A DNA stretch of 33,234 nt, taken from positions 1-33,234 of IMG/VR virus record IMGVR_UViG_2585427777_000018; one strand, given 5' to 3'. Position numbers: made by a program. Shown here piece after piece: positions 15,001 to 18,000 of the stretch; positions within the stretch are counted from its first letter, which is position 1, and each line of letters opens with the position of its first letter. The DNA comes from a virus (taxonomy: Duplodnaviria > Heunggongvirae > Uroviricota > Caudoviricetes).

Positions 15001-18000
15001 CGAAAAAGGTCGCCAGATCCGCCGCTACTTCATCGAGTGCGAAAAGAAACTTCGCAACATTCAGCCAGTACAAGCAGAACCACAGCCGCAATTCACAGCC
15101 GAGGAAATCATCCTCCTTTGCTACATGCAGCTCTGGATGGAAAAAGCCCAGGACATCAGCAAACACCTGTATCCCATTATGAAAGAGCTGAACTCCTCAT
15201 ACACGAACAAGCTGTATGACATTGCGTTTGAGACCATCTACATGGTGACGAAGAACAGAGACGCGCTACTAAGGGAGGTAACACATCTCGACATGTCAAG
15301 TTCCGTTATCCAGCGGGCCATGCCAATGCTGAAAAGTCTGCGGGCAAGACAATTTGAATTCTGAAACCAAAGGAGCTTCGGCTCCTTTTTTCATGCCTGA
15401 AGGAAAGGAAAATGGCAGATATCATCGACAATGCCGCTGAAATCGAAGAATTGCAGCGCAATCTCTCCCTGCAAAAATACAAATCCGATAGTAATGCCCC
15501 ATCTGCTACTCATTGTTGCGAGTGTGGCGATCCGATAGATGAGCGGCGACGCCTGGCTGTTCGTGGATGCCGAGCTTGCGCCAGTTGCCAGCAGGATATT
15601 GAACTTATCAACAAACAGAGAGGTGTGAAGTGAACATCAACACCACGATAACGATCGATACAGCCCTGAACACCGGCCTGGCGCTCCTTGGTTATTTCTA
15701 CATCATGTTCTGCAGCGGACGATGGCTGTCACTGTTGTTCATGAAAAAATGGAATAAACGCCGTAAGCAGGAGCAACGCCAGAAGGCAATGGATGCATTT
15801 TTCGAAGCCTTCGGGATTGACAGCATGGAACCAGGGGATCCAGCTCGCGCAATCAGCAGAGGGGGCGTAGTAATCCTTGTATATCGGAGTGAAGAGAAAA
15901 ATGACGATCACAAAACAACGTGTAGAAAAAATCATATATCGCCATGAAATGGGACTGAACAGCGATGTCACTGCCGAAGAGGTTTATGACCTGGCTGTAC
16001 TGGCGCTGAATTTATCAAATATCGCAAACCTGAAGCGATACGAGCTTGATATGGATGGTTGCGACTCGTGCGGTCAGGATTGTGGCGCAGATATGACTGA
16101 AGATCCTGATGGTGATTATGTCCTGTTTGATGACGTGGTTAAGTTGTTTGAGCTTGATACATTCGAAAGCCCAGCAAAGGAGGCAACCAGTGAGCAAGAT
16201 TGATTATCAAAAGCTTCGTGAAATCGCTGAAAAAACAAAAATTGCTGGTGAAGCACCTGTAATGCCTTTCGATCAGCGAATTAATGCGCTTAACGATTTT
16301 ATGAAGCACTTTTCGCCAGATATCGCGCTGGCATTGTTGGATGAGATCAACGCATTAGAGGAAACGCGTATCAACGATGTTTGCCGTATTGCGGAACTAA
16401 CAAAACAACTGGAGTTGGCAAAATCAAAACTCAACGAGCAGCGTGAGTATTACGAGGGCGTTATCTCGGATGGAAGTAAGCGCATAGCAGAGTTAGAAAG
16501 TGATTCTCAGGCACAAAAGTTAGTTGAAGCAATCATTGTTGCGATAGAAAACGAACAGAAACGTCTTTTTGATGAAGATTACCTAATGGATTCGAAAGAA
16601 TGCATTGACGTAATTCGTGAAGAAGTAAAGCGATGGAATGATTCCCGCGCCGCTGGCATTCGCATCAAAGGAGAGTGAGATGACCACATCGCATTCTGCA
16701 ATTACCCAGAAAAAAGCCTTCCACATACTCGAACGATTAGAGGCGCTTGCTACGGAGGAGGAGATATCCCCGGAGAAACTGGTTGAGTTCAGCCGTGTGA
16801 TATTGCGTCGCAAGAACGATATGGAGCGGCTGACATCTGGCGCTCCATCCTTATCAGTCAGGCGAACACTTTGTTGCAGCTTCTGCAACAAATCCCAGTA
16901 CGCCGTCAAAAAGTTAATTGCTGGGGACGCCGTTTTCATCTGCGACGAGTGTGTGGATGTGTGCAACAGAATTATCCGGGGAGAGAAAGAGGGATCAGCA
17001 TGAAATTTTCCAAATTTTCTGAGTTGGTGAATCGTATTTTGTCCAACAACCACAGCCATCGTCGCGATATGGATGTAACGATCGTTGTTCATTCGCCTGG
17101 TCGCATCGGTTCAACACCATCAGTTGAGGTTCAGTCAATTCAGGCGGGTTTTGATTGGGATGCCGGGAAAGTGATGATTTTTCCAGCACAGCCACTGACC
17201 ACGCTAACACCGGAGCAGGTTGCTGATATCACTGATAGTGTGCGCAAAGGTCAGTCTTGGCACGCGTATCAGGAATACAAGAAGCATAAAGAGCAGTTGG
17301 AAAAATTGTCGATGGAGTTGGAAGCCGCTAAACAGCGGGAAAAAGATCTGTTTATGGAAAATGTTCGACTTAAGTCAGGTATAGCCGGTCTGATACACCT
17401 CGGTATTCGATATGCGGATGTTGAGGTCATGAAAATTGCTGGAGATGCCCAGCTTTCTACTCCATGCACTGACAGCATCATAAACAGCATTGCAGCAGGC
17501 ATTTTCACCAAAGAGGGGGCAGCACGATGAGAACACTAGAGGTTCGCGCTGAAGACGTAATCCCTGGTGATGTGCTCATAACATCTAAAGGTCAACAATG
17601 TGCGGTTAAATCTTTTTGGATGGAAAATGACAAAGTGACTCTGTTCGGTACGGATGGTTCCGAAACTGATTATGACTACGACGAATTGCTTGTTATTGAG
17701 AGAGCTGCCTAATGACCACCTTTACCAAAGAACAGTTAATCTCCCATGCACGCGAAAGCGTTAGTTATCTGGAAAACTTGAAAGGACGTGTTAGCAAAGA
17801 AGGTGCGGACTGCAAAGTTGTTATTGAGATGGTTGCACGAGATCTAAAACTGGCACGGATTGCGCTGGCATCGCTGGAAGCAGATCCAGTTAAACGAGTT
17901 AACTCAGATCAGATGCGCCGAGTCTGCTTAGAAGCTAATCGCCATTTAGATAAATATGACGCGATGGCGAAAGAGGTAAATAAGTTGCTTGGACGCATCG

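Follow-up and report, generated by a model that had tools for sequence, protein, structure and literature searches.

A ClpX-type zinc-binding domain on a small protein of temperate phages: a candidate trans-acting mimic of the ClpX docking domain

ClpXP controls sigma-S, SOS mutagenesis (UmuD'), antitoxin turnover, cell division proteins and the replication and transposition proteins of lambda and Mu, and most of its selectivity is routed through the small N-domain of ClpX. ClpX N-domains are constitutive dimers in the hexamer, and their exchange with a free zinc-binding domain (ZBD) should be disfavoured. The isolated ClpX ZBD was reportedly used experimentally in trans by Wojtyra et al. in 2003. 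A hydrophobic patch of ClpX that includes F16 and I46 binds lambda-O, trigger factor (TF), SspB and RssB (PMC7804408). Supplied in trans at 5-20 uM in vitro, the isolated ZBD, a free dimer that competes with ClpX for RssB, inhibits the degradation of sigma-S that ClpXP carries out with RssB (Micevski et al. 2020, PMC7226468 Fig. 1d); it binds XB peptides at 35-82 nM, and SspB-ClpX docking functions across species (PMC12373786).

TraR/DksA-type proteins offer an analogy of strategy only, in that a short mobile-element protein retains only a host regulator's functional zinc-finger module and takes that regulator's place on the host machine. TraR, which mimics DksA/ppGpp, differs from the protein described here in fold and in target, the latter being the secondary channel of RNA polymerase and not ClpXP. 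Phage proteins that blunt host proteolysis are represented by lambda RexB, which acts on ClpP-dependent proteolysis, and by T7 gp4.5 and T4 PinA, which act on Lon, and inhibitors of this type have been linked to the protection of lambda-O and the prevention of antitoxin degradation (PMC10286901). The E. coli anti-adaptors IraD, IraM, IraP and IraL are small proteins, some of them horizontally acquired, that stabilise sigma-S by interfering with the adaptor rather than the protease; IraD and the ClpX ZBD have been proposed to occupy an overlapping site on RssB (PMC7226468). Our literature searches brought up neither work on ZBD proteins that are free-standing or carried by phages nor any functional study of the family considered below.

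The protein of interest is encoded in a window of 33,234 nucleotides, the whole stretch of DNA analysed, in which E. coli ynfE-ynfF precedes a prophage integrated into ynfG. The phage setting assigned by the original prediction was thus correct, its coordinates for the 107-aa ORF were exact, and the 35-residue string that it quoted corresponds to residues 65-99 (Table 1). The gene has 100% nucleotide identity with annotated genes in NCCP15648 and p09EL50. Its start is favoured over an upstream one that would give 121 aa (16638) because of the Shine-Dalgarno-like AAGGAG that precedes it, and PGAP uses the same start codon. A single nucleotide separates the stop codon of the Ead/Ea22-like gene (16676-16678) from the ATG, the stop codon overlaps the next gene in an ATGA, and more 4-nt and 1-nt overlaps between ORFs follow downstream, a layout that fits the translational coupling put forward earlier. 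The array to which the gene belongs contains an AntA antirepressor, a TraR/DksA zinc finger, DUF4752, the Ea22-like and ZBD genes and three unknowns, one of them with DUF551. The prophage is degraded: a 5.3-kb deletion cuts the LPD38 giant gene, a duplicate ant is truncated, and no integrase was seen at the window's end of the prophage. Promoter and terminator scans gave matches at chance level, with no convincing promoter for the ZBD gene.

Table 1. Coordinates of the gene, its predicted domains and its neighbours in the window
Feature	Position	Strand	Basis
Tightly packed accessory-gene array	14735..18476	+	ORF overlaps (4-nt, 1-nt), Pfam, RefSeq annotation of near-identical locus
TraR/DksA-type small zinc-finger gene, same array	15412-15633		Pfam PF01258
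Ead/Ea22-like gene, directly upstream	16109..16678	+	Pfam PF13935 E=1.1e-13; ORF list
Shine-Dalgarno-like AAGGAG, 6 nt 5' of ATG	16668..16673	+	Sequence read directly
Hairpin-ZBD CDS, 107 aa, stop included	16680..17003	+	ORF, translation; = RefSeq WP_000213528.1
Predicted N-terminal helical hairpin, residues 10-52 (helices 10-26, 31-52)	16707..16835	+	AF2, pLDDT 70-85
Predicted flexible linker, residues 53-63	16836..16868	+	Low confidence, variable columns, indels
ClpX-type C4 ZBD, residues 64-102	16869..16985	+	Pfam, PDB, Foldseek matches
Putative Zn-ligand codon, C66	16875-16877	+	
Putative Zn-ligand codon, C69	16884-16886	+	
Putative Zn-ligand codon, C88	16941-16943	+	
Putative Zn-ligand codon, C91	16950-16952	+	
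Downstream 176-aa gene	17000..17530	+	PHROG 6026/368, function unknown; ATGA overlap with ZBD-gene stop

The C-terminal part of the protein, which ends 5 residues past the ZBD, matches PF06689 (zf-C4_ClpX) with E=1.3e-15; the score is 57.4 bits, where the gathering threshold is 27, and the aligned residues, 65-100, span positions 2-38 of the 39 in the profile. Alignment to the ClpX N-domain, suggested with the original prediction as a check, gave a clear match: in a phmmer search of the PDB, residues 62-102 matched the E. coli ClpX ZBD (2ds5/1ovx, E=1e-14), with 28/41 residues identical. In the AF2 model, residues 64-105 are predicted at pLDDT 83-90, and Foldseek aligned the modelled ZBD to 2ds5/2ds6/2ds8 over 38 columns with an rmsd of 0.4-0.5 Å and TM (target) of 0.84-0.93, a predicted treble-clef fold superposable on the solved ClpX domain. 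The similarity is far beyond chance, and the description of the C-terminus as a near-copy of the ClpX ZBD is borne out, as is the notion of a small phage protein bearing a free-standing N-domain of ClpX; what had been overlooked are the 56 conserved residues at the N-terminus.

Within the family, C66, C69, C88 and C91, equivalent to ClpX C14, C17, C36 and C39 in a C-x2-C...C-x2-C arrangement, are invariant in 23/23 members. The residues of the ligand patch are retained: F68 (ClpX F16) is kept in all 23, I98 (I46) is I, V or L in 21, and I99 (I47) is kept in 21. At 22 of the 39 ZBD positions the E. coli ClpX residue is found in at least 19 of the 23 members, these positions including all Cys, F16, K19, Q21, D37, E38, N44, I47 and R48 (ClpX numbering). 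Two residues universal in ClpX depart from this pattern, Pro31 being replaced by Asp or Glu in 20/23 members and Gly18 being lost in 22/23, in most of them to Asn or Lys.

The N-terminal region is predicted to fold as a helical hairpin, whose conservation equals that of the ZBD and which has the invariant residues K12, R19, E21, E26, E27, R44 and D47. An exhaustive phmmer search (1.84 billion representatives) together with a profile search recovered the hairpin only in this ZBD-fused family and in truncated copies; hairpin homologues with other C-terminal domains were therefore rejected, and a 650-aa match (P0122) was dismissed as a low-complexity repeat match. A fold search of the hairpin against the PDB and BFVD gave nothing above noise. 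Between the two domains, AF2 gives a mean pLDDT of 55 for the block of residues 51-60, falling below 50 at residues 57-60, with a pTM of 0.38. Helix 2 of the hairpin contains an XB-like LRRK stretch that might dock on a ZBD, although its position is inside the predicted helix.

PGAP calls the protein "ClpX C4-type zinc finger protein", and PHROG 6797 (function unknown) matches it at full length (E=2.9e-58; residues 1-106 align with positions 1-106 of the 107 in the profile). The database name "carboxylate--amine ligase" that many homologues carry is a propagated misannotation, PF06689 being the only Pfam match and no ATP-grasp or GCS2-type ligase catalytic domain being present in a Pfam scan of the 107-aa protein. 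Identity with the ClpX unfoldase was likewise rejected: the score is 41.9 bits for TIGR00382 (cut-off 359) and 39.7 bits for NF003745 (cut-off 371), the matches are limited to model positions 4-48, and the 107-residue chain stops without an AAA+ module. Profile searches of Pfam and NCBIfam revealed no sequence similarity to ClpXP adaptors or anti-adaptors (SspB, RssB, UmuD, IraD/M/P). A known anti-phage defence system was rejected, since PADLOC-DB v2 models gave no match at E<=0.01 for the protein and three neighbours.

The family is confined to temperate elements of Escherichia and Salmonella, where it occurs in four phage lineages. Its carriers are the degraded ynfG prophage, phage-plasmids of the SSU5-like and D6 kinds, and prophages related to P2 (P88). 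Copies on phage-plasmids that are inducible or active, PhiR41_1 among them, are 100% identical to the intact ORF of the window; frameshifted or truncated members are also found (P0123, P0125, P0126). The genes reside in early or accessory gene arrays without a constant neighbour. Only Ead/Ea22-like genes recur nearby, in variable positions; no similarity was found between the 176-aa downstream gene and the downstream gene at P2-like loci. A conserved partner gene or operon-level system was rejected, as the downstream gene varies by lineage, and the hairpin-ZBD protein can thus probably act alone. Small ORFs with only the ZBD recur in unrelated phages, as shown by Caulobacter phage Cr30, a 65-aa protein of Pseudomonas phage PP9W2, and PHROG 12435. 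Metagenome matches that would suggest a large family of free-standing ZBDs are unreliable, at least some being clpX fragments: one (P0102) is located in tig-clpP-clpX'-lon, and others (P0064/65/73/85) have AAA+ residues.

Comparison with E. coli clpX points to an ancient synonymous divergence, with pS values at saturation (0.83-0.94; 0.83 for the window copy) and a nucleotide identity of 0.63. Across the seven members compared, 24-31 of 41 ZBD residues (59-76%) are identical to E. coli ClpX, and acidobacterial ClpX ZBDs (~83% identity) resemble the window ZBD more closely than does that of E. coli. Recent capture from the host clpX is rejected on these grounds. The departures of the window ZBD from E. 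coli ClpX (N18, K25, F34, V42) are all seen in bona fide ClpX of other phyla, including examples with AAA+ modules (P0065/P0085), which places the phage domain, as judged from its residues, within the range of genuine ClpX orthologues. Within the family, dN/dS is 0.15-0.6 for both the hairpin and the ZBD half, indicative of purifying selection on the whole protein.

On the basis of these data we tentatively propose that the product of the gene mimics the ClpX N-terminal docking domain in trans and titrates N-domain-dependent adaptors or substrates. Such a decoy is the most economical reading of the evidence, being supported by a ZBD in the ClpX range, the F16/I46 patch, purifying selection and the inhibitory effect of the free ZBD in vitro. 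The phage ZBD would bind zinc, homodimerise as ClpX's own does and present the same hydrophobic groove, and the expressed protein would compete with ClpX for ligands that dock on the N-domain, candidates being the SspB XB tail, RssB (sigma-S delivery), UmuD and substrates of the lambda-O or MuA type. N-domain-dependent degradation or remodelling would be selectively slowed, with substrates recognised at the pore (ssrA tags) largely spared. The hairpin might mediate self-association, with more ZBD dimers per particle outcompeting bivalent adaptors, or provide a second, phage-specific contact. The phage could gain by stabilising a labile protein of its own or the antitoxins or sigma-S of the host, or by excluding ClpX-dependent competitors. 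If this is correct, temperate phages and phage-plasmids would have a new means of adjusting host proteolysis while leaving the protease on, and an inhibitor hitherto available only as a laboratory product would have its first known counterpart in nature. The proposal is directly testable, as the family is compact (~107 aa) and present in cultivable phages (PhiR41_1, D6, P88), and the predicted ligands are available in purified form.

Compared with the ClpX N-domain, the phage ZBD has the same fold, cysteine arrangement and ligand patch, with a predicted superposition of 0.5 Å, but it lacks an AAA+ module and is C-terminal rather than N-terminal. The isolated ClpX ZBD has the very activity proposed here, but it is a laboratory construct of a host protein, in contrast to a natural phage gene with an additional conserved hairpin and a predicted activity. 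RexB, a membrane protein, as well as gp4.5 and PinA are unrelated in sequence, and none copies a domain of the protease's own unfoldase. The anti-adaptors have no sequence or fold kinship with the phage protein, and their specificity is for RssB; from a ZBD mimic, competition for all ligands of the N-domain would be expected instead. Dominant-negative action by heterodimerisation with ClpX is less likely than ligand titration, because the N-domains of ClpX dimerise with one another at the high local concentration that they have inside the hexamer.

Several observations weigh against simple titration. A pure decoy has no obvious need of the conserved hairpin, which titration leaves unexplained, and the Pro31 and Gly18 changes may bear on dimerisation or groove geometry. 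Inhibition by the free ZBD in vitro required a micromolar excess (PMC7226468), so the dose in vivo matters. Nor does conservation by itself prove ligand mimicry, because most of the conserved residues of a 40-residue zinc ribbon may be structural, determining the fold. This last point leads to an alternative that we consider somewhat unlikely, namely that the protein is a small regulator independent of ClpX, in which the ZBD serves as a zinc-ribbon module for dimerisation or peptide binding and the hairpin carries the function, perhaps through contact with nucleic acid or with a further protein of phage or host, with ClpXP unaffected. The treble-clef finger is a versatile fold, and some proteins other than ClpX, for example cyanobacterial sigma factors, carry PF06689 as an accessory domain (PMC11119718). 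The loss of the two ClpX-universal residues and the neighbours (Ea22-like, DUF4752, DUF551), whose roles are probably unrelated, are compatible with this alternative. A module freed from ClpX would, however, be expected to drift, and yet the ZBD is still in the sequence space of ClpX orthologues despite saturated synonymous divergence, with F16 and I46/I47 of the ligand patch retained; moreover, the near-neutral charge of the protein (pI 8.25, +1.6) gives no hint of nucleic-acid binding.

The conserved hairpin also keeps alive a model in which the protein is an adaptor that hijacks ClpXP, the ZBD pairing with a ClpX N-domain or joining the N-domain cluster and the hairpin bringing specific host or rival-phage cargo, a model that we regard as improbable. 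The arrangement of two conserved modules, one on either side of a disordered linker, resembles that of an adaptor such as SspB, with its folded cargo domain, flexible tail and docking motif (PMC9963277), and tethering alone is enough for ClpXP to degrade untagged proteins (PMC12373786). The invariant charged residues of the hairpin suggest a specific interface, and the hairpin occurs without the ZBD only in truncated or frameshifted copies. Against this stand the constitutive N-domain dimers of the ClpX hexamer, with which exchange should be disfavoured, the lack of a known candidate cargo or conserved neighbour gene, and the phage ORFs of Cr30 and PP9W2, which have a ZBD and no cargo module. 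Doubtful to the same degree is the version in which the hairpin, planted on ClpX as a viral substrate receptor through heterodimerisation of the ZBD with a ClpX N-domain, would reprogram ClpXP to destroy a host defence or regulatory protein or one of a competing phage. Such reprogramming, if true, would be a bacterial counterpart of viral ubiquitin-ligase hijacking, achieved with a stolen protease docking domain, and a hairpin that binds a specific target could guide the design of ClpXP-based tools for targeted degradation or inhibition.

Finally, that the gene is non-functional debris, either a host clpX fragment captured by a phage or a decaying gene of a defective prophage, is scarcely credible: the degraded state of the window prophage and the frameshifted or truncated relatives would agree with decay, but the saturated synonymous divergence rules out recent capture, and the reading is effectively refuted by the selection on both halves of the protein and by the distribution of an intact ORF, with its dedicated N-terminal domain, on active phage-plasmids and across four phage lineages.

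The C-terminal part of the hairpin-ZBD protein (107 aa), described in the original prediction as a near-copy of ClpX's own C4-type domain for zinc binding (ZBD), was recognized as such by Pfam, by phmmer against the PDB and by AlphaFold2 superposition. PF06689 (zf-C4_ClpX) covers residues 65–100 (E=1.3e-15, 57 bits, cut-off 27), the peptide first quoted being residues 65–99, and ClpX proteins are the only phmmer matches among all PDB chains, with 2DS5 and 1OVX, both structures of the E. coli ZBD, scoring best (E=1e-14, residues 62–102). In the AlphaFold2 model, with 21 family members as input, the ZBD has pLDDT values of 83–90 and overlays 2DS5/2DS6/2DS8 at 0.4–0.5 Å. 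Since the NCBIfam ClpX equivalog models are matched only over their first ~45 positions, with scores far under cut-off, the protein is a ClpX domain rather than a ClpX. The E. coli ClpX residue is retained at 22 of 39 ZBD sites in at least 19 of the 23 members, including the polar K19, Q21, D37, E38, N44 and R48. The departures in the window (N18, K25, F34, V42) each occur in authentic ClpX of other phyla, and, as systematic differences, most family members have Asp or Glu in place of Pro31 and have lost Gly18.

The original prediction captured the ZBD but overlooked the N-terminal half, a two-helix hairpin in the AlphaFold2 model, which is conserved to the same degree as the ZBD in an alignment of 21 homologues (invariant residues K12, R19, L20, E21, L23, T25, E26, E27, I29, L34, L42, R44, K45, D47 and L51). 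The pTM of 0.38 indicates that the modelled halves have no fixed mutual packing. When residues 1–63 were compared exhaustively by phmmer with 1.84 billion representative proteins, nine matches emerged, eight of them in the same family; the distant members P0121 and P0127 are ~40–46% identical in the hairpin and both carry a terminal ZBD, and a profile search with the hairpin found nothing further beyond truncated or frameshifted copies. Hairpin–linker–ZBD is thus a fixed, exclusive architecture limited to Escherichia/Salmonella elements. Three E. coli copies of the distant subfamily (P0123, P0125, P0126) are broken within or before the ZBD, by truncation or frameshift (55, 77 and 98 aa versus 111 aa for P0127), so that the gene is evidently dispensable and decaying in some lysogens.

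Published work on the ZBD bears on function. ClpX lacking it does not degrade lambda-O or RssB-delivered sigma-S and still degrades ssrA-tagged proteins (PMC7804408, PMC7226468, PMC9963277), and lambda-O, trigger factor, SspB and RssB all dock on one shared hydrophobic patch, of which F16 and I46 form part (PMC7804408). The isolated ZBD dimerises, binds RssB and, in trans at 5–20 uM, inhibits sigma-S degradation (PMC7226468); it also has nanomolar affinity for XB peptides, and SspB–ClpX docking works across species (PMC12373786). Since F16 is present in all family members and the residue at I46 is hydrophobic in 21 of 23, these experiments make competitive titration of N-domain ligands the simplest mechanism, possible rather than probable, in which the hairpin-ZBD protein would be the natural counterpart of the laboratory ZBD supplied in trans. 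Zinc binding, dimerisation, ligand binding and an effect in vivo, that is, everything beyond the identity of the domain, we infer. The decoy role originally proposed is plausible, partly supported and incomplete, the hairpin being the main element left without explanation. Bivalent SspB tethering would leave a monovalent competitor weak; the hairpin may multimerise the decoy or, alternatively, may bind a specific target.

A ClpX-independent role of this versatile zinc ribbon, in line with the presence of PF06689 on cyanobacterial sigma factors (PMC11119718), is rather unlikely. From the option of a specific target comes the much less probable proposal that the protein is a hijacking adaptor, docked on ClpX by its ZBD and supplied with cargo by the hairpin. 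A non-functional gene is effectively excluded. When the codons of seven family members were compared with one another and with clpX of E. coli, dN/dS within the family was 0.15–0.6 for each half, indicating that both are under purifying selection. Against clpX, nucleotide identity is 0.58–0.67 and synonymous differences are saturated (pS 0.83–0.94), yet identity extends to 24–31 of 41 residues; the ZBD was therefore captured long ago, and selection has kept its resemblance to ClpX.

The protein belongs to the PF06689 domain family and to PHROG 6797 (function unknown), and has no place in any PADLOC defence system. Many family entries (P0004, P0005, P0007 and others, D6 orf93, P88 gp19) are labelled "carboxylate--amine ligase", a name rejected here as a widespread, propagated misannotation of 102–120-aa proteins that contain PF06689 only. 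Its nearest functional counterparts are the free ZBD used in experiments, the Ira anti-adaptors and the phage protease inhibitors RexB, T7 gp4.5 and T4 PinA (PMC10286901); both the anti-adaptors and the inhibitors are unrelated to it in sequence and are not domain mimics. Small ZBD-only ORFs elsewhere (Caulobacter phage Cr30, Pseudomonas phage PP9W2, PHROG 12435) point to free ZBDs as a recurrent, unstudied phage theme, and our literature search found no functional work on these ORFs or on the hairpin-ZBD protein. In Cr30 (NC_025422), a lytic phage whose host cell cycle is governed by ClpXP adaptors, a free-standing ClpX-type ZBD is encoded by an ORF of at most 79 aa (2522–2761, + strand), of which the record annotates just the final 41 codons (2636–2761). 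PGAP had catalogued and named the gene before, so there is no novelty at the level of sequence; new, if true, would be phage interference with host proteolysis via a copied unfoldase docking domain, a proposal that available ClpXP reagents and the cultivable phages carrying the gene make easy to test.

The translationally coupled layout noted at the outset is real as an arrangement, given the one-base gap upstream, the ATGA overlap and further overlaps of 4 nt and 1 nt between downstream ORFs. A 121-aa reading from 16638 was rejected, as it lacks a ribosome-binding site and its start is not the one adopted by PGAP.

Features of the window and of the hairpin-ZBD protein
Feature	Position	Strand	Remarks
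ynfG start	13683		interrupted near 13766 by prophage end
Truncated AntA-domain ORF	14201-14485		94 aa; immediately inside prophage, 5' of full antirepressor gene
Full antirepressor gene (AntA)	14735-15364		
TraR/DksA-type C4 zinc-finger protein	15412-15633	+	73 aa; PF01258, E=1.5e-7
AAGGAG motif	16668-16673	+	5' of ZBD-gene ATG
Upstream-gene stop codon	16676-16678	+	one base 5' of ZBD-gene ATG
Hairpin-ZBD CDS	16680-17003	+	107 aa
ATGA overlap	17000-17003	+	ZBD-gene stop / next-ORF ATG
Giant LPD38-domain gene	18878-24410	-	1832 aa; 2783 aa in NCCP15648
Helix 1	residues 10-26		AlphaFold2 model
Helix 2	residues 31-52		AlphaFold2 model
Linker	residues 53-63		AlphaFold2 model; low confidence; between helix 2 and ZBD

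The window consists of E. coli ynfE–ynfF followed by a prophage interrupting ynfG, with a same-strand array of AntA antirepressor, TraR/DksA zinc finger, DUF4752, Ea22-like, hairpin-ZBD, two unknowns and DUF551. The two AntA ORFs represent a partial duplication. The TraR/DksA-type gene lies ~1 kb upstream of the ZBD gene, with several ORFs between, so that the array carries two short proteins each reduced to the zinc-finger module of a host regulator, a likeness in strategy. Position 24410 abuts sequence located 5.3 kb further along in strain NCCP15648, so that a 5.3-kb deletion has taken the 5' third of the LPD38 gene and several neighbours; the prophage is degraded and defective. The Ea22-like region 5' of the ZBD gene is mosaic, with 257 bp (16161–16418) in place of ~1 kb in NCCP15648 (L003 17952–18967). 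Over 16418–17513 (Ea22-like 3' end, ZBD gene, next gene) the identity to NCCP15648 is 99%, and the overlapping ~16316–17600 is 99% identical to SSU5-like phage-plasmids, which points to module exchange between chromosomal prophage and phage-plasmid.

SSU5-like phage-plasmids of ~109 kb, for example p09EL50 and PhiR41_1, an isolated phage, carry a gene with 100% nucleotide identity, and the close copy is plasmid-borne in 103 of the 108 complete E. coli genomes having one. The P1-like phage-plasmid D6 (orf93), another D6-like region and P2-like prophages, including phage P88 (gp19), have homologues as well. In the P2-like elements the gene lies between replication gene A and the portal gene, in many cases with ParM/StbB ahead of it, a site that we take to be the variable tin/old cargo locus. 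Because the downstream gene varies among lineages and Ea22-like genes are the sole recurrent neighbours, the protein has no obligatory encoded partner. In the P2-family loci L004–L012 and L021 (including P88), ParM/StbA and StbB partition genes directly follow gene A and adjoin the ZBD gene; most carriers (these P2-like elements, SSU5-like, D6) are thus equipped with plasmid-style maintenance functions. In another P2-like prophage (L017, GCA_033678605.1), an almost perfect palindrome whose arms measure ~24 nt (cactgtcttactttgtccgtacttt…aaagtacggacaaagtaagacagtg; 5897–5957) lies in the 105-nt gap immediately upstream of a distant ZBD homologue; no T-run follows it, and it may be an element resembling a terminator or an operator.
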